In this document: piece after piece, positions 1-35,852 of the stretch | Layout: each line of letters begins with the position of its first letter | Position numbering within the stretch: the first letter of the stretch is position 1 | Origin: a phage | Length of the DNA stretch: 64,000 nucleotides | Sequence record: PZ445550.1 | Direction: 5' to 3' (one strand) | Program-made: the position numbers and the translations under genes | The notes under the pieces: model-generated | Told to the model about the DNA's origin: nothing | Database searches by the model: none | What the model saw: only the letters and a program-made list of their open reading frames with translations

Positions 1-1317
1 ATGGAAGTTTCAAGACCCTATGTTAATACTGTAGATGTTATTGACTTTGGTATAGATAAACGTTTCTTTCGTCTGCCAGTTTCCGGGATACTAGCTCAAG
101 AGGGTATTACACCTAATGGTCCTCAAATAGCAATAATTAATGCTTTAGAAGATCCTAGACATCGTTTCGTAACGGCGTGTGTATCACGCCGTGTGGGTAA
201 GTCCTTTATAGCGTATACACTTGGGTTCTTAAAGCTACTGGAACCTAATGTAAAAGTACTGGTAGTTGCACCTAACTACTCGCTAGCAAATATCGGCTGG
301 TCTCAGATTCGTGGGCTTATTAAAAAATATGGACTACAAACCGAACGTGAGAATGCTAAAGATAAGGAGATTGAGCTGGCAAACGGCTCGCTCTTCAAAC
401 TAGCTTCTGCAGCTCAGGCTGACTCCGCTGTTGGTCGTTCATACGACTTCATCATTTTTGACGAAGCAGCAATTTCCGATGTTGGGGGTGATGCCTTCCG
501 AGTTCAGTTACGCCCTACTCTAGATAAACCTAATTCTAAAGCTCTATTTATTTCTACTCCTCGTGGTGGTAACTGGTTTAAAGAGTTCTACGCGTATGGG
601 TTTGATGATACTTTACCTAACTGGGTATCTATACATGGTACATATCGTGACAACCCACGTGCTGACCTTAACGATATCGAAGAAGCTCGTCGTACTGTTA
701 GTAAAAACTACTTCCGCCAAGAATATGAGGCTGACTTCTCCGTATTCGAAGGACAGATCTTTGACACCTTCAATGCTATCGAGCATGTTAAAGATCTTAA
801 AGGTATGCGTCACTTCTTTAAAGACGATGAAGCATTTGAAACCCTACTTGGTATTGACGTTGGTTATCGAGATCCTACAGCAGTTCTCACTATTAAGTAC
901 CATTACGATACCGATACATACTTTGTTCTAGAAGAGTACCAGCAAGCTGAGAAGACTACAGCCCAACATGCAGCGTATATTCAACATTGTATAGATCGTT
1001 ATAATGTTGATCGTATCTTTGTTGACTCTGCAGCAGCTCAGTTCCGACAGGATTTAGCGTATGAGCATGAAATTGCATCTGCTCCAGCTAAAAAGTCTGT
1101 CCTAGATGGTTTGGCATGTTTGCAAGCTTTATTCCAGCAAGGAAAAATCATTGTAGATGCGTCTTGCTCCTCATTAATTCATGCACTGCAGAACTACAAG
1201 TGGGACTTCCAAGAAGGCGAAGAGAAATTATCACGTGAAAAACCACGTCATGATGCTAACTCTCACCTTTGTGATGCTCTGCGCTATGGAATTTACTCAA
1301 TTTCCCGTGGTAAATAA
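1..1317 (+). CDS. terL: Terminase large subunit (ATPase/nuclease)
   Basis: 438-aa ORF, same length as T5 large terminase; Walker B-like FIIFDEAA; sits directly upstream of the portal gene. Confidence 0.85.
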   Translation: MEVSRPYVNTVDVIDFGIDKRFFRLPVSGILAQEGITPNGPQIAIINALEDPRHRFVTACVSRRVGKSFIAYTLGFLKLLEPNVKVLVVAPNYSLANIGWSQIRGLIKKYGLQTERENAKDKEIELANGSLFKLASAAQADSAVGRSYDFIIFDEAAISDVGGDAFRVQLRPTLDKPNSKALFISTPRGGNWFKEFYAYGFDDTLPNWVSIHGTYRDNPRADLNDIEEARRTVSKNYFRQEYEADFSVFEGQIFDTFNAIEHVKDLKGMRHFFKDDEAFETLLGIDVGYRDPTAVLTIKYHYDTDTYFVLEEYQQAEKTTAQHAAYIQHCIDRYNVDRIFVDSAAAQFRQDLAYEHEIASAPAKKSVLDGLACLQALFQQGKIIVDASCSSLIHALQNYKWDFQEGEEKLSREKPRHDANSHLCDALRYGIYSISRGK

Positions 1318-1431
1318 GTAAGTATAGGATGGGATACTACTCAGTTGGTATCCCATTCCTGTATTTTAAAATCCCCTTTACAAATTCGATACGATTATGT
1401 ATACTATATTCATACAGTTGAGGAGAACACT

Positions 1432-1866
1432 ATGGCAAGCAATATAAAATATAAACGCGATGCTATATCTCTTATGAGAGACGGAATAAAAAGTCAATAT
1501 AAAAAAGACTCTCACTGCGCTATCTGCGGTTGTGAAGAAGAATTAGAGCTTCATCACTACCATACGGTGTCTCTACTAGTTAAAAAATTTGCTAAAGAAC
1601 TCCAATTGGATTTCACTGATGAAGAAACAGTCCTCTCAAATAGGACGGCATTCTATGATCGATATAGGCATGAGCTAGTAGAAGACACTGTTACCCTTTG
1701 TGTACACCATCACCAACTATTACATAAGGTTTACACAAAAGAACCTCCATTATTTTCTGCTGAAAAGCAAAAAATGTGGGTTCAAAAGCAGAAAGAAAAG
1801 CTAGAGAATCCTCAAGAAAAGACACAAGTCAAGACTGAAAAATCAGGATTCGCAAGGTTCTTATAA
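1432..1866 (+). CDS. HNH endonuclease (zinc-finger type)
   Basis: Cys/His motifs CAICGC...HHYH...CVHHHQLLH; start placed at ATG 1432 behind GAGGAG; stop overlaps portal ATG (TAATG). Confidence 0.7.
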   Translation: MASNIKYKRDAISLMRDGIKSQYKKDSHCAICGCEEELELHHYHTVSLLVKKFAKELQLDFTDEETVLSNRTAFYDRYRHELVEDTVTLCVHHHQLLHKVYTKEPPLFSAEKQKMWVQKQKEKLENPQEKTQVKTEKSGFARFL

Positions 1867-3083
1867 TGGGTTTTAAAAGCTGGATTACTGAAAAGCTAAA
1901 TCCGGGTCAACGTATTATAAGAGACATGGAACCAGTTAGTCATCGCACTAACCGTAAGCCTTTTACCACTGGACAAGCCTACAGTAAAATTGAGATTCTC
2001 AATCGAACTGCTAATATGGTTATAGATAGTGCGGCGGAGTGTTCTTATACTGTCGGAGATAAATATAATATTGTTACGTACGCTAATGGCGTCAAAACAA
2101 AGACTCTAGACACTCTCTTAAATGTACGACCTAATCCATTCATGGATATAAGCACATTCCGTAGACTTGTAGTCACTGACCTACTATTTGAAGGTTGTGC
2201 ATATATCTATTGGGATGGCACAGCACTTTATCATGTCCCCGCGGCATTAATGCAAGTGGAGGCAGATGCCAATAAGTTTATCAAAAAATTCATATTTAAT
2301 AACCAGATAGACTATCGCGTAGATGAGATTATCTTCATTAAAGATAACAGTTACGTGTGTGGCACAAATTCTCAAATTTCTGGACAATCTCGTGTTGCTA
2401 CAGTTATAGACTCTCTTGAGAAGCGTTCTAAAATGCTTAACTTTAAAGAGAAATTCTTAGACAATGGCACTGTGATTGGTCTTATTCTTGAGACGGATGA
2501 AATCCTGAACAAGAAATTGCGTGAGCGTAAACAAGAAGAATTACAATTAGATTATAATCCTAGTACTGGACAATCAACAGTCCTGATTCTAGATGGTGGT
2601 ATGAAAGCAAAACCGTACTCCCAAATATCCTCATTCAAAGACCTAGACTTTAAAGATGATATTGAACGTTTTGATAAAAGCGTTTGTCTAGCCTTTGGTG
2701 TTCCTCAGGTACTTATTGATGGTGGTAATAATGCGAATATTCGACCTAATATCGAATTATTCTATTATATGACTATTATACCTATGTTGAACAAATTGAC
2801 TAGTGCTCTTACTTTCTTCTTTGGTTATAAAATTACTCCAGACACTAAGGAAGTAGTCGCATTAACACCTGACAAAGAATCTGAGGCTAAGCATTTAACC
2901 TCATTGGTTAATAATGGTATTATAACGGGTAATGAAGCTCGTGCAGAGTTAAACCTTGAACCTTTAGATGATGAGCAGATGAATAAGATTCGTATTCCTG
3001 CTAACGTTGCTGGTTCTGCTACAGGTGTATCTGGTCAAGAAGGTGGTAGACCGCAAGGCTCCACCGAAGGAGATAAAGAATGA
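1866..3083 (+). CDS. Portal protein
   Basis: 405-aa ORF between terminase/HNH and prohead protease; size and position match T5-type portal. Confidence 0.8.
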   Translation: MGFKSWITEKLNPGQRIIRDMEPVSHRTNRKPFTTGQAYSKIEILNRTANMVIDSAAECSYTVGDKYNIVTYANGVKTKTLDTLLNVRPNPFMDISTFRRLVVTDLLFEGCAYIYWDGTALYHVPAALMQVEADANKFIKKFIFNNQIDYRVDEIIFIKDNSYVCGTNSQISGQSRVATVIDSLEKRSKMLNFKEKFLDNGTVIGLILETDEILNKKLRERKQEELQLDYNPSTGQSTVLILDGGMKAKPYSQISSFKDLDFKDDIERFDKSVCLAFGVPQVLIDGGNNANIRPNIELFYYMTIIPMLNKLTSALTFFFGYKITPDTKEVVALTPDKESEAKHLTSLVNNGIITGNEARAELNLEPLDDEQMNKIRIPANVAGSATGVSGQEGGRPQGSTEGDKE

Positions 3084-8867: not shown

Positions 8868-9770
8868 ATGTACTACTCTCTAATGCGAGAGTCAAAAGTT
8901 ATAGTTGAGTATGATGGTAGGGCATTTCATTTTGATGCCCTATCAAACTATGATATACAGACTTCCTACGAGGAATTCAAGACTCTTCGTAGGACTGTAC
9001 ATCGTAGAACTAACTATGCAGACTCTATTATAAATGCCCAAACTCCTTCCTCTATTTCACTAGCAGTAAATTTTAGTAATACTCTTACTGAAGCTAACTT
9101 TTTTGAGTGGTTAGGATTTGATAGGAAGGGCAATACTTTTTTATTACCATTATATAGTATTAATATTGAGCCTATTATGTTCAATATTTATATAGTGAAT
9201 AAAGATAACAACTGCGTATACTTTGAAAACTGCTATGTATCTACGATAGATTTTTCTTTAGACAAAAATATACCAATTCTTAATATTGGTATTGAATCGG
9301 GGAAATTCTCTGAAGTATCCACATTCACAGAGGCAGCTTCTATTATACAAGGTGAAGTAATGTCTTATAGCCCAGTAATAGCATATACCAATGGCAGTAC
9401 ATTACCTGGTCTTATTTCTGCTTCTCTATCTTTCCAGCAGCAATGTTCCTGGAGAGAAGATAAGAGTGTTTTCGACATAAATAAAATTTATAATAATAAA
9501 AGAGCCTATGTAAACGAAATGAATGCTTCGGCAACCATTTCCCTATACTACTTAAAACGTTTTGCGGGAGATATGGTTTACAATATTGAACCGGAAACAG
9601 ACGTACCTTTAACTATAAGAAATAATAATATTTCTATAGATTTTCCTTCAGCACGTATTACAAAACGCCTAGATTTCTCAGATGTGTATAGAGTTGAGTG
9701 GGATATTATACCTACTGCTTCTTCGGACCCAGTGAGAATAGATTTCTTTGGAGAAACTAAAAATGATTAA
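8868..9770 (+). CDS. Hypothetical tail-associated protein
   Basis: 300-aa ORF between tail tube and chaperone genes. Confidence 0.4.
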   Translation: MYYSLMRESKVIVEYDGRAFHFDALSNYDIQTSYEEFKTLRRTVHRRTNYADSIINAQTPSSISLAVNFSNTLTEANFFEWLGFDRKGNTFLLPLYSINIEPIMFNIYIVNKDNNCVYFENCYVSTIDFSLDKNIPILNIGIESGKFSEVSTFTEAASIIQGEVMSYSPVIAYTNGSTLPGLISASLSFQQQCSWREDKSVFDINKIYNNKRAYVNEMNASATISLYYLKRFAGDMVYNIEPETDVPLTIRNNNISIDFPSARITKRLDFSDVYRVEWDIIPTASSDPVRIDFFGETKND

Positions 9771-10167
9771 TTTAAAAGATATTACTCTTGATACCCGTAC
9801 TATTACTCTTTCTTACCCAGGTATGCCTAACTTTAAATTAGAACTCAATTATATGTCTCGTGCTACCTCTAAACGTGTTATTTCTTCTGCTAAACGCGAT
9901 GAATGGGTTAATGGTACACTGATGCAAGTACAAGATGATGACAAGTTCATTGAAGCATTTGTTGATGCAGCTATTAAAGGCTGGACTGGCCTAACAGTAG
10001 GTGATGTTGAAAAACTAATGTTAATTGAAACTGATGCTGACCCTGCTACTGAAGTTCCTTTTACCCGCGATAATGCTGTAATGCTTATGCAGAACTCTGC
10101 TGCGTTTGATTCTTGGATCAACCAGACAGTGTTCCACTTAGACACTTTTCGTAGCTCAAAAGCGTAA
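9763..10167 (+). CDS. Tail assembly chaperone (putative)
   Basis: ORF just upstream of tape measure; start taken at ATG 9763, overlapping the upstream stop. Confidence 0.45.
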   Translation: MINLKDITLDTRTITLSYPGMPNFKLELNYMSRATSKRVISSAKRDEWVNGTLMQVQDDDKFIEAFVDAAIKGWTGLTVGDVEKLMLIETDADPATEVPFTRDNAVMLMQNSAAFDSWINQTVFHLDTFRSSKA

Positions 10168-26880: not shown

Positions 26881-28719
26881 TTATTCTAAGTAGGAAAATC
26901 CTTCTGCATCTTTTTTGACAGTAATCTTATGAGCTAATGGATGCGTATGCCCATGAGAAACAATGATAGAGTTTAGACTTTCTTCTTCGTTTAGCAACTC
27001 AACAAGGGTATCGAGTCCTTTTGTATCAATAAAGCTAATTACTTCGTCAAGGAACAGAAGATTAATATTAACTTTACTAATAGATGTTAACAACATTCTA
27101 ATAGCTAACAGAGTTGCTAGATTGATTCTACTTTGCTGACCAGTAGAGCAGTTCTCCATGCTGGTACGGTTTCCATCATTGAAGATTACTACTTGTAATT
27201 TCGTTTCATCAAGTTCAAATCCAAGTGCGAACTTACCACCAGTCATAATAGAAAGATATTTATTAATTAATTCCTCAAATACTTTCACACTATGCTCTAG
27301 TTTATATCCTACCAAATTTTTCAGTGCAGCAATTAAAACATCAAGATCAGCAACAGCTTCTGATACTTCATTCAATTTGGAAGTAATCTCAGACATTTCT
27401 GCTTCAGCTTTCTCAATTTGTTCTAATCTTGCTTTATACTTTGCATTGGCTAACTCGACATTTGCATTATGCTCTTTAGCAATTGCAACCCTAGAACGTC
27501 CATCTGCTATTTCTTTTTCTAATTGTCGGATTTGCACCAGTAGGTTCTGCACATTGAGTTCTTCAAAAGAAACATCACTCATTGAATTTTTAAACTCATC
27601 TCTAGCCGCTACTGCTCTATCTAAGGAATCCTTAGCCCTATTATATGCAGTATACTCAAGTTGCTCTTTCTTCAACTGCTCGAGTTTAGCTTCAAGAGAT
27701 TGTTTCTCTTTGAACAGAGGATCATATTCTGTTCTAGCCATATCCATTGCTTTTTGAGCAGCAGTTGTATCTAGATGAGTACCACAAGTAGGACATTCAG
27801 TATTTGAAGCCTCTTGTTTAAATTTCTGATAACGTTTCTTGACTTCTCCCGCACGTGAGGTCACAATCGTTAGGTCACGCGTAACACTCGAGATTTCTTC
27901 GTTTTGGTCGGTGGGCGCAAGTAAATTTTTGAAGGGTTCGAAAGATTGTTCGGCAACTTGTACAGCTTTGTCCAAATTACGCAATTTAGTAATATTAGCC
28001 TCTTGTGCTTTGGCTAATGCCGCCTTAATTTTCGATTCAGTAAGCTCTTGTGCTAACGGTTCTTCATCAAACTCTGGAACTTCAACAGGCTCCTGTAAAC
28101 TTCCTAGACTATTTTTATTACTAAGGATTTTCGTAATTACAGCCATTTGGCCTTGCAAGTTATTTAAAGTATTTGCTACTTCTTTACGATCGGCCTTAAT
28201 AGTTTCCGACATTTCTTTGTACTGTTCTTGATTGAACAGATTAACAAGAAAAGCCTTACGCGTTGCATCTGTTGCTTTTAAGAAGTCTAGGTTTGAACCC
28301 ACGGATTGATAAATTAGTTTGGTGAATGTTTGGAAATCACCGCCCATAATCTCTTCAATCATCTTGTATGTTTGGGTTGCCGTGTGCCCACTAATATCTT
28401 CCCCGTTCTTAATAAGAGTGACTTTAGCGGTTGATTTAACTACTTTATGCAGTTCATACTCATCTTCATCCTTAGAAAAGTAAGCATGCATATCGTACTC
28501 TTTCTTAGGAGAAGACCAAGAAAATAAAGCGTCCTTCTTAATACCACGAGAGTTTTTATTATAAAATAACTCTTCAATAACAGTGGCAATAGTAGACTTT
28601 CCTAGTCCATTTCCGCCAATTAATTGAGTAACTGGATTTTTATCGAAATGAATTACGATGTCCTTACCGTAAGACATAACATTACTAAATTTTAGTGTCT
28701 TAATTGTAATCTTTGACAT
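26881..28719 (-). CDS. sbcC: SbcC/Rad50-like ATPase (T5 D13-like)
   Basis: Walker A GGNGLGKST, long central coiled coil with CxxC hook (CPTCG), D-loop LLFLDEVISFID; start at internal ATG 28719. Confidence 0.8.
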   Translation of the reverse strand: MSKITIKTLKFSNVMSYGKDIVIHFDKNPVTQLIGGNGLGKSTIATVIEELFYNKNSRGIKKDALFSWSSPKKEYDMHAYFSKDEDEYELHKVVKSTAKVTLIKNGEDISGHTATQTYKMIEEIMGGDFQTFTKLIYQSVGSNLDFLKATDATRKAFLVNLFNQEQYKEMSETIKADRKEVANTLNNLQGQMAVITKILSNKNSLGSLQEPVEVPEFDEEPLAQELTESKIKAALAKAQEANITKLRNLDKAVQVAEQSFEPFKNLLAPTDQNEEISSVTRDLTIVTSRAGEVKKRYQKFKQEASNTECPTCGTHLDTTAAQKAMDMARTEYDPLFKEKQSLEAKLEQLKKEQLEYTAYNRAKDSLDRAVAARDEFKNSMSDVSFEELNVQNLLVQIRQLEKEIADGRSRVAIAKEHNANVELANAKYKARLEQIEKAEAEMSEITSKLNEVSEAVADLDVLIAALKNLVGYKLEHSVKVFEELINKYLSIMTGGKFALGFELDETKLQVVIFNDGNRTSMENCSTGQQSRINLATLLAIRMLLTSISKVNINLLFLDEVISFIDTKGLDTLVELLNEEESLNSIIVSHGHTHPLAHKITVKKDAEGFSYLE

Positions 28720-33292: not shown

Positions 33293-35852
33293 CTAAAATC
33301 CTCTTCACATTATCCAGATCTTTACATACAGCAATAAATTTATCATCCTTGTATTTATTGTGCTCTGGATGCTCTTTATCCATTGCAGCTAATTTCTTAT
33401 ACTCAAAATCTGCATCAAGTAGTACACCCTTGACATAACGAGTATATTCATCATCGTCAATACAAGCGATTGACGGGTGTTGTTTCTTCATCTTACCACA
33501 AGAGTAATCACGAGAACCACCTTTTTCAGAGTCAGAATCAATACCAATCGGGCAGCCAGGGATGCTAATACCACGATCTTTCTGAATATTACGAATCAGA
33601 ATTTCGTTGTACTGGTCAATTAAATCTTCACGAACAATAGCAACCACGGAGTCATGGACTAGCATAACAATCTTCATCTCTTGCTCTAACCCAAGAGAAA
33701 TGATCTCATTATCCGCGTCCACAGCACCTAAAAGGAGGCTATCAGAAGAGGCAGACTGAATGATTGCGTTAAATCCAGAACGGATTTCTTCACCCTGAAC
33801 TCCACGGTCTTCAGAATGGATGTTGTGCAAACGACGTTTACGACCAAAATGACTATAGATAAATCCAAAGTTCTTGATTTGGTCATGGCACTTATCAATC
33901 CAGCGCTTAAGCTGAGGGAACTGACCGAAGTAAGTTTCGATGTAGTCCTTCGCATCTGCAACGGTACATTCAACAAACGGTTCACCAGTTTTAGCAGCCT
34001 GTTCTAGAAGAGCTTCGTTAACAGAATGAGCTACCTTAGCTGGACCAGAACCGTACAAAATACCAAAGGTAATTGCTTTAGCTGCTTGACGTAGAGCTGG
34101 GAATAGCTTTTTAACATCACGCGGTTCACATTGCAGTTTAAATACCATATGTGCGATGTTAGAGTGGAAGTCAGGGTATTTATCAGGTTCATTTCTCATA
34201 TTGATAAATACTTGCTGCATATTTCTATCTCCAGATAGAACAGCAGCATAATAAACTTCCGCAGTTGTTAAGTCCCATGCAATTACACGGTATCCTTTGG
34301 GAGCTACTACACAACCTTTGATAATTGATTCATCACGAGGTAGCTGTTGCAGGTTTAGTTTACCGGAAGAACTCAGACGACCTGAAGTAGTCATATGTTC
34401 ATGGAAACCTGTACGAATGCAACCATCTGCATCAATACTCAGTAGAATCTTCTCTACATAAGTTGAGATTAGCTTAGTCAATTTACGAATCTCTAGCAGA
34501 GTCTTAGCTATTGGATGTTGCGTAGCTAATTCATTCAGAGCTTCTGCATCAGTGGAATCCGCTCCAGTATCCGTAAGTTTACCTGTTGGGGTTAAACCAA
34601 CATAATCAAACAGAAGAACACGTAGTTGTTTAACAGAGTTAGGATTAAATGCTTCATTCTGGTCTTTCTCTAGCTGAACTACTTCTGGATAAGTATACAG
34701 TTTCTCACGAGCTTTATTCAGATTATGGGTTAACTGATACTGAGCTTCTTTTAGACGATCAACAGAAATTGGTACTCCACGGTCTTCAACACGTTGTAGG
34801 AATACACAACCAGGCATTAGAACGTCGTAATACAGACTGCAAAGTTTTTCATTCTTCTCAATTTTCGGTAAGAAGAAGTTATGCAAACGTATAGTAGCAT
34901 CCGTATCTTTTGCAGCATACGGCCACATAATATCAAATGGAATTAAATCATAGGTGAAATCTTCTTTCTTGATTTTATGCGCTTTGCAGTAATCATCTTT
35001 AAACTTATCTAGTTCAAAATCATAATCACCCATATCGGTGTACTTCATTGCTAGTGATTTCAAGCCATGAGTACCACGACGTTCATCTAGAACATAGTGC
35101 TGTAACATGGTATCGTGAAGTCTACGTTCTTTATGCGCTTTATCAAAAGTAAGTCCCAGATGATACTTATAAAAGTGCATATCAAACTTCAAGTTATGAA
35201 AAACAATAGTGTGTTTTTCACTGTCCAGAATTTTCTGGAGATAGTACACTGCAACTTCCGTAAGGCAATCAGAATCGATATAAACACCTTGATACTCTTG
35301 GTGAGACATAGAAACACCAAGCAGATAACCATCACGACAGTATAATGCTGAGGTTTCGGAGTCGAATGCTACAGGTCCGATAACCATGTTGTATACCATT
35401 TTGATATATTCTTCAGCTTCGTCTGGATCTGTAATAGGACGATAATCACCAGCTTTTGCAATCTTCTCACGACCATTGATAATATCGTGGATGTTTTCTA
35501 CTGTTGCATCGAAAACTGGTTTCATTTCAGGTTTAAAGTGTAACTGGGCTGGACTAATACTTGCAATCCAGTTAGCATATCCGTTATATTCTACACGTTT
35601 ACCAGTATAATCACCAATGCCTTTTTTGCCTGCAAAGTACAGAAAAGGTTCAGCACCTACTAGTATAACAAAATCATAATCGTTCGGATTAAATGGGTTT
35701 TCTGGTGTTCCGATAGTAATGTGCTTTTTCAGCAAACGTCCAGATAACTTCTCGTTACACATATGAAATACATCAACTTCTTCACCATAAAGCTGGAAGT
35801 GCTTGTCATAACGAGTATTATTTAGTGCTTTGTCAACTACTGCGATTTTCAA
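33285..35852 (-). CDS. DNA polymerase (family A, T5 D9-like)
   Basis: 855 aa, same length as T5 polymerase; 3'-5' exonuclease motif VAFDSET, polymerase motifs DLTTAEVYY and MLVHDS. Confidence 0.9.
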   Translation of the reverse strand: MKIAVVDKALNNTRYDKHFQLYGEEVDVFHMCNEKLSGRLLKKHITIGTPENPFNPNDYDFVILVGAEPFLYFAGKKGIGDYTGKRVEYNGYANWIASISPAQLHFKPEMKPVFDATVENIHDIINGREKIAKAGDYRPITDPDEAEEYIKMVYNMVIGPVAFDSETSALYCRDGYLLGVSMSHQEYQGVYIDSDCLTEVAVYYLQKILDSEKHTIVFHNLKFDMHFYKYHLGLTFDKAHKERRLHDTMLQHYVLDERRGTHGLKSLAMKYTDMGDYDFELDKFKDDYCKAHKIKKEDFTYDLIPFDIMWPYAAKDTDATIRLHNFFLPKIEKNEKLCSLYYDVLMPGCVFLQRVEDRGVPISVDRLKEAQYQLTHNLNKAREKLYTYPEVVQLEKDQNEAFNPNSVKQLRVLLFDYVGLTPTGKLTDTGADSTDAEALNELATQHPIAKTLLEIRKLTKLISTYVEKILLSIDADGCIRTGFHEHMTTSGRLSSSGKLNLQQLPRDESIIKGCVVAPKGYRVIAWDLTTAEVYYAAVLSGDRNMQQVFINMRNEPDKYPDFHSNIAHMVFKLQCEPRDVKKLFPALRQAAKAITFGILYGSGPAKVAHSVNEALLEQAAKTGEPFVECTVADAKDYIETYFGQFPQLKRWIDKCHDQIKNFGFIYSHFGRKRRLHNIHSEDRGVQGEEIRSGFNAIIQSASSDSLLLGAVDADNEIISLGLEQEMKIVMLVHDSVVAIVREDLIDQYNEILIRNIQKDRGISIPGCPIGIDSDSEKGGSRDYSCGKMKKQHPSIACIDDDEYTRYVKGVLLDADFEYKKLAAMDKEHPEHNKYKDDKFIAVCKDLDNVKRILGA

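Follow-up and report, generated by a model that had tools for sequence, protein, structure and literature searches.

A predicted orthologue of the T5 nicking endonuclease SciA between the large terminase and portal genes of a T5-like phage

In the 64,000-nucleotide stretch of phage DNA analysed here (hereafter, the window), a short gene stands between those for the large terminase subunit and the portal protein, and its product carries the cysteines and histidines of a zinc-finger HNH protein. The location raises the question of whether the gene belongs to the packaging machinery, as a nuclease that cleaves DNA during head filling, or is a mobile endonuclease that happens to have landed among the head genes, and a reading of the sequence without database searches (the sequence-only reading) had entertained both. 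Taken together, the searches, alignments, structural model and genome comparisons reported below make it very probable that window positions 1432-1866 (+) encode an orthologue of T5 SciA (T5.153 / T5p149), a zinc-finger HNH nicking endonuclease. Orthology, fold, conserved residues, synteny, universality, and the existence of three consensus targets outside the window are each established here, and the assignment to SciA draws on homology and on the names given in PDB titles, Pfam, and GenBank.

Gene order, start codon, and upstream spacer

Over its first 3.1 kb, the window matches the reverse strand of the Escherichia phage KookSpook record (PP925842) at 100% identity and more than 400 T5-like phages at 80-95%. 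The order of genes, namely large terminase, sciA orthologue, portal, decoration protein, prohead protease, and major capsid protein, is that of the T5 head module, which together with the KookSpook match and the T5-like relatives bears out the earlier attribution of this DNA to a T5-like phage (coordinates are collected in Table 1). The overlap onto the portal gene that had been read from the sequence was likewise confirmed, the TAA stop codon of sciA (1864-1866) and the ATG of the portal gene (1866-1868) having one base in common, and the identical one-base overlap of the two genes occurs in T5 at 105346.

The 5′ boundary of the gene required correction. Position 1345, formerly given as its start, is only the first TTG of a mechanically delimited open reading frame after the upstream stop codon, and it is not a start codon because it lies inside a terminator-like hairpin. 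The real start of sciA is the ATG at 1432, which yields a protein of 144 aa, because a GAGGAG ribosome-binding site lies 5 nt upstream of it, the homologues all start at the equivalent methionine with the sequence MA(S/T/A)N, the alignment of the crystallised T5 protein starts at that methionine, and the KookSpook source record annotates the gene at 1432-1866, under the label “hypothetical protein.” Residues encoded by 1345-1431 were not found in any homologue in the alignments, including that of 46 homologues.

Nor does the gene follow the terminase “immediately,” as had been stated, given that a conserved 114-bp spacer (1318-1431) intervenes. A consensus scan of this spacer returned a hairpin with a 13-pair stem and a 6-nt loop, followed by the tail CTGTATTTTA, which T5 and Epseptimavirus relatives carry in nearly the same form. 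Downstream of the hairpin lies a sigma-70-like promoter-like element that is kept in Sepoy, atrejo, and T5 and that, from its sequence, is a candidate promoter for sciA and probably for the portal gene. Two annotated peptides in this region are probably spurious: a 30-aa CDS named “hypothetical protein” in the source record at window 1329-1421 (+), which amounts to a translation of the spacer with its hairpin and promoter-like element, and the N-terminal 28 residues of the annotated T5.154, which starts at the equivalent ATG and so also includes translated spacer.

Table 1. Positions of genes, signals, and conserved motifs in the window
Feature	Position	Strand	Basis or remark
Large terminase subunit	1..1317	+	Pfam Terminase_6N and Terminase_6C matches
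Terminator-like hairpin and T-rich tail, just past the terminase stop	1327..1368 (hairpin 1327-1358)	+	Consensus scan
Non-coding 5′ extension of the mechanical ORF (TTG 1345)	1345..1431	+	Outside the protein; overlaps the hairpin and promoter-like element
Sigma-70-like promoter candidate, TTTACA-17-TATACT	1377..1405	+	10 of 12 consensus positions match
Ribosome-binding site GAGGAG, 5 nt upstream of ATG 1432	1421..1426	+	Read from the sequence; kept in relatives
sciA orthologue, 144-aa nicking endonuclease CDS including TAA stop	1432..1866	+	Predicted function
Codons C29-A-I-C32, first zinc-knuckle pair	1516..1527	+	Both Cys invariant in 46 homologues
Codons H41-H42	1552..1557	+	Both invariant; H42 is the putative catalytic His, at the end of beta-strand 1
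Codons C90-V-H-H93-H94-Q-L-L-H98, second zinc pair (C-x2-H) and metal-binding helix	1699..1725	+	C90, H94, and H98 invariant
C-terminal peptide SGFARFL, residues 138-144, disordered tail	1843..1863	+	Phi-x-x-Phi-[LIKMRV] pattern
TAATG stop/start overlap of sciA and portal	1864..1868	+	Read from the sequence
Portal protein	1866..3083	+	Pfam Phage_portal, E=1e-49
Orthologue of the T5 64.8% major nick site	27910..27921	+	Located by a BLAST search with the T5 site region

Identity and fold of the protein

A phmmer search of PDB sequences matched the window protein over its full length (residues 1-144) to 9qgv_A (E=2.6e-75) and 9qgx_A (E=4e-75), each named “Nicking endonuclease.” The titles of entries 9QGV and 9QGX, which were released on 2026-03-25, describe the [quoted passage not shown] and the chain sequence is that of T5.153 with the second His of ELHHYH altered. 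The window protein is 81% identical to T5.153, has nearly the same length (144 aa here, 145 in T5), has the zinc and catalytic residues in common with it, and is encoded at the same position upstream of the portal gene. The Pfam family PF26848 (Phage_T5_Nicking_endo) is assigned in precomputed annotations to 115 of 115 homologue clusters, one of which is 94% identical to the window protein, the exact window protein itself not being among the clusters so annotated.

Direct searches with the window protein returned no Pfam matches, including to HNH models, even at E≤1; this result was not taken as a sign of novelty because PF26848 is newer than the copy of Pfam that was searched. No NCBIfam model matched. 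Among the PHROGs, the unnamed phrog_3497 was matched at E=1e-66 and the HNH family phrog_8048 more weakly, at E=5.5e-6. Many GenBank and UniRef records already label the homologue “nicking endonuclease,” “nicking site-specific endonuclease,” or “SciA,” and the T5 reference records, like KookSpook, still carry the label “hypothetical protein.” The sciA gene is therefore an already known one, with its own Pfam family, solved structures, and names in GenBank.

An AlphaFold2 model was built from the 46 homologues, using an alignment that left out the T5 sequence taken from the GenBank locus, and reached a mean pLDDT of 87.9. It places a strand at residues 38-42 that ends at H42, three helices between residues 46 and 84, a second strand at 86-90, and a helix at 91-101; the modelled fold is thus a beta-beta-alpha-metal core with a helical insert of ~43 residues between the two strands, and it is the same as that of the solved T5 SciA structure. 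Invariant among the 46 homologues, which extend to 40% identity, are C29, C32, H41, H42, Y43, R71, C90, H94, and H98, with H93 conserved in at least 90%. The T5 equivalent of H42 is the residue that was mutated (H42Q, H42A) in the DNA-bound crystal structures.

Comparison with canonical HNH / His-Me finger nucleases (the PF01844 clan) returned likeness in topology and divergence in detail. The two groups have in common the beta-beta-alpha core, the His that closes strand 1 (H42, as placed by the AlphaFold2 model), the His residues of the metal-binding helix (H94 and H98, both invariant), and a flanking zinc knuckle, of which the first pair (C29-x2-C32) is invariant. SciA differs in that the ~43-residue helical insertion splits its strands, in that the second CxxC of the knuckle is C-x2-H in the T5-like clade (C90-x2-H93), and in that the position of the canonical Asn, residue D85 by motif register, is variable, being D, H, Q, Y, or E in the homologue alignment and absent from both the invariant and the ≥90% conserved columns of the 46-sequence alignment.

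The family is a narrow one, with a profile search of 1.84 billion representative proteins returning only 172 relatives at E≤0.001. The most distant of these have CxxC as the second zinc pair, in the canonical arrangement CxxC...TLCxxCHxxxH (C-x2-C-H-x3-H at the second zinc site), and score 16-18 bits against the Pfam HNH model PF01844, under its cut-off of 21.4 bits; an hhalign comparison of one such relative with the family profile gave a probability of 97%. Since both the Pfam HNH score and the canonical Asn fall short of the formal definition, the SciA family is best described as a divergent branch of the HNH superfamily. The sequence-only reading of a zinc-finger HNH protein accordingly holds at the level of motif and topology, where C29, C32, H41, H42, C90, H94, and H98 are invariant, and does not extend to a match with Pfam HNH.

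From these features we propose a mechanism for which we infer the roles of individual residues, the timing of expression, and the occurrence of nicking activity in this particular phage. SciA would be a small zinc-finger HNH (His-Me finger) endonuclease, expressed late, that nicks the phage’s own duplex DNA at a handful of sites containing GCGC; in T5, these sites read 5′-R/GCGCRGG on a single strand, and nicking there would produce the single-chain interruptions that characterise the virion DNA of T5-like phages. The CxxC...CxxH zinc knuckle (C29, C32, C90, H93) would stabilise the beta-beta-alpha-metal core, H42 at the end of strand 1 would serve as the general base, H94 and H98 on the helix would bind the catalytic metal, and GCGC would probably be recognised by the three-helix insert (residues 46-84, ~43 residues), to which the invariant R71 belongs. 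Transcription of sciA would be shared with the head genes, and its translation would be coupled to that of portal.

Distribution and the mobile-element question

A tblastn survey located SciA in 901 phage records, 899 of them near full length, and the large terminase of the same family in 908. Counts of nickase and terminase records agree by genus: Vibrio, 356 and 356; Escherichia, 130 and 130; Salmonella, 267 and 271; Klebsiella, 82 and 81; Proteus, 10 and 10; and Aeromonas, 7 and 7. In the T5-like phages of Vibrio, whose SciA is ~48% identical, the gene lies at 1406-1834, directly after a terminase gene that starts at base 1, and in the most divergent metagenomic relatives the terminase-sciA-portal synteny is kept, with sciA just 5′ of portal. 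SciA nevertheless diverges faster than the terminase, copies at least 95% identical to those of this phage being found in 31 records for SciA vs 439 for the terminase.

The sequence-only reading had suggested conservation across T5-like genomes as a check and had named, as a refutation, sporadic occurrence among near-identical relatives together with no packaging defect upon deletion. The gene is universal (901 vs 908 terminase records) and not sporadic, and by that reading’s own criterion the proposal of a second mobile endonuclease is refuted, as it is by the matching genus counts and the fixed place upstream of portal. What could have spoken for a free-standing homing endonuclease, that is, a selfish mobile element lodged between the terminase and portal genes, is the company that sciA keeps: T5-like genomes hold many HNH homing endonucleases (hegA-G in T5), and the locus is an insertion hot spot in which a T5orf172-type gene stands between terminase and sciA in T5, in 3sent1, and in an environmental relative. 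That sporadic gene, however, is of the T5.154 type, a gene other than sciA and one absent from the window, whereas sciA is present in ~99% of the records with the family terminase, holds its place beside portal down to 40% identity, and displays no presence/absence polymorphism in these records, all of which leaves the homing interpretation with a negligible probability. We conclude that sciA is a vertically inherited core gene of Demerecviridae and not a mobile element. The practical gain is a corrected label, from “hypothetical protein” to SciA nicking endonuclease with its start at 1432, with the mobile-element interpretation dropped.

The HNH enzymes of the T5 tRNA region (F-TflI, II, and IV; hegA-G) are like SciA in being HNH enzymes of the same type of genome, and differ in that they are annotated as free-standing HNH endonucleases with standard InterPro HNH domains, whereas sciA is universal, a core gene whose product forms a family of its own. 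Some of these tRNA-region enzymes reportedly nick duplex DNA site-specifically, as Akulenko et al. are said to have described in 2004.

The inserted gene of T5, T5.154, is a T5orf172/GIY-YIG-like “putative homing endonuclease” between terminase and sciA (33774-34607 (-) in the T5 locus, L001). With tblastn, genes of this type were matched in only 158 records, identity reaching ≥80% in ~80. In an alignment with T5, the insertion point falls just past window position 1413 (1413-1421), between the promoter-like element and the ribosome-binding site of sciA; DNA identity to T5 is 97.6% before this point, toward the terminase, and 83.8% after it, toward sciA. The spacer that T5.154 interrupts in T5 is an uninterrupted 114 bp in the window, which thus represents the empty site. 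In the sampled records, it is the ~81%-identical T5-type SciA allele that adjoins the T5.154-type insertion. An environmental T5-like contig (L018) carries a different gene, with DUF723 and T5orf172, at the same spot.

An apparent insertion of ~530 bp in the sciA and portal genes of SUT_E420 (OQ990039; L008 1350-3622) and SUT_E520 consists of runs of N with duplicated flanks and was set aside as a scaffolding or assembly artefact. T5-like coliphage sequence is also carried by the records of Campylobacter phages C13 (MG065692) and A148 (MG065642) and of Listeria phage LM 4-14-1 (OR848434), the C13 record being 99.5% identical to the window over 3.1 kb; these records were probably mislabelled or contaminated.

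Nick sites, packaging, and the C-terminal tail

The T5 record lists major single-chain interruptions, which lie on one strand, at 9748, 22336, 39746, 78573, and 121279; 9748 and 121279 are the two terminal-repeat copies of a single site. The four distinct sites, when extracted, all read R/GCGCRGG, and the nicked strand corresponds to the + strand of the window. The same consensus is given in a published account, according to which nicking depends on two genes of the late region, sciA and sciB, and the function of the nicks is not known (PMC3517423). The strand-specific nicks of T5-like DNA were discovered ~60 years ago. In T5 (AY543070), the terminal-repeat site at 9748/9749 falls within the annotated “injection stop signal” (9140-10149) of the first-step-transfer DNA, and the palindrome GGGCAATTGCCC comes next.

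Three of the T5 sites are kept exactly in KookSpook, as A/GCGCAGGG, outside the window at record positions 10085, 24705, and 40651, and therefore targets of the enzyme exist in this genome. No other RGCGCRGG match occurs in the first 44 kb. Each of the three is on the strand that is nicked in T5, and the DNA around them matches that of T5 at 89-92% local identity. The fourth, the 64.8% site, falls inside the window, antisense in the D13/SbcC-like gene, where the sequence at the cut point (27914/27915) reads GGTGG/GCGCAAGT (GGTGG/GCGCAAG) and departs from R/GCGCRGG. This site is intact in T5 and degenerate in this phage, and in an alignment of eight phages the other seven T5-like phages retain GCGCRGG there. 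Given the degenerate D13-gene site, KookSpook may naturally lack the 64.8% interruption. As a natural variant with three consensus sites kept and the fourth lost, the phage offers an easy experimental entry, as does the C-terminal motif described below.

On neither strand of the 64-kb window does RGCGCRGG occur, and GCGC itself is found 51 times, at a GC content of 38%. Shorter GCGC-based patterns displayed no strand bias in the window, with RGCGCRG occurring five times per strand, so nick sites are not predictable from the core alone. The rarity of such sites in the phage (51 GCGC and no full consensus in the window, the full consensus being limited to three sites within the first 44 kb of the genome) and their commonness in E. 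coli could be read as the mark of a nuclease directed against foreign DNA, whether of the host or of a competing phage, with self-nicks as a by-product. We consider this very improbable: sciA is a late gene among head genes, annotation assigns the degradation of host DNA in T5 to the pre-early A1, and the existing sites are positionally conserved between T5 and KookSpook within DNA of 89-92% local identity, a conservation that favours selection to keep the sites rather than to avoid them.

The bearing of SciA on packaging is a separate matter. The sequence-only reading had proposed that an HNH protein at this position might be required for packaging-associated cleavage, and of this proposal the location within the packaging block stands, whereas the requirement does not, the closest characterised homologue being the T5 nickase and T5 mutants without nicks having been isolated and found viable (PMC3517423), so that the nicking function is dispensable. 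Our analysis makes sciA a predicted non-essential nickase, not an essential packaging nuclease. A looser link of SciA to packaging is plausible, given that sciA belongs to the terminase-portal block as a late gene and that sciB has been used as a second label for the small-terminase gene.

The gene with the double label lies upstream of window base 1 (KookSpook 107949-108431; T5.156). It is a “terminase small subunit” in RefSeq, with the Pfam family PF26823 (T5_Terminase_small), and in two T5 GenBank records T5.156 is instead the [quoted passage not shown] It is possible that this double labelling reflects a genetic link between nicking and packaging.

A stronger form of the packaging proposal would make SciA an accessory of the HK97 gp74 / GVE2 type, one that associates with the terminase and without which the end-generating cut of packaging would fail, instead of or besides making internal nicks. 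The gene does adjoin both the terminase and the portal genes and is translationally coupled to the latter, the neighbouring small-terminase gene carries the second label sciB, and a conserved docking-like peptide at the C-terminus could tether the enzyme to the motor. Set against this are the viability of the nick-less T5 mutants cited above, the RNaseH-like nuclease domain that the large terminase possesses of its own (Terminase_6C), the ends of T5 DNA, which are direct terminal repeats of 10,219 bp (T5 record) and not cohesive or cos ends, and the PDB complex, in which the DNA is that of an internal GCGC site. HK97 gp74 and the HNH protein of Geobacillus virus E2 (PDB 5h0o) are described as parts of the packaging or end-cutting machine, whereas SciA makes site-specific internal nicks, and no significant sequence similarity was found between SciA and either protein. 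As the primary function, an end-cutting accessory role is improbable in our judgement, and we retain the reading of SciA as an internal nickase.

The residual novelty of this locus resides in the natural loss of one nick site and in the C-terminal motif of the nickase. A Phi-x-x-Phi-[LIKMRV] pattern occurs within the last 9 aa in 103 of 111 full-length members of the family, is duplicated in 36, and is found in only 7 of the 80 ORFs of the window. The tail that bears it is variable in length, has a pLDDT of ~51 in the AlphaFold2 model, and is missing from the modelled PDB chains (119-121 of 148 aa). From its sequence pattern, the peptide is probably a docking motif. We advance as a tentative suggestion, itself rather unlikely, that SciA does not diffuse freely and that its tail docks on the packaging motor, via the small terminase (sciB) or the portal, so that DNA would be nicked during translocation. 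If true, docking on the motor would explain why one strand only is cut at a GCGC core that is palindromic, and would account for the reported absence of nicks at consensus heptamers on the opposite strand of T5.
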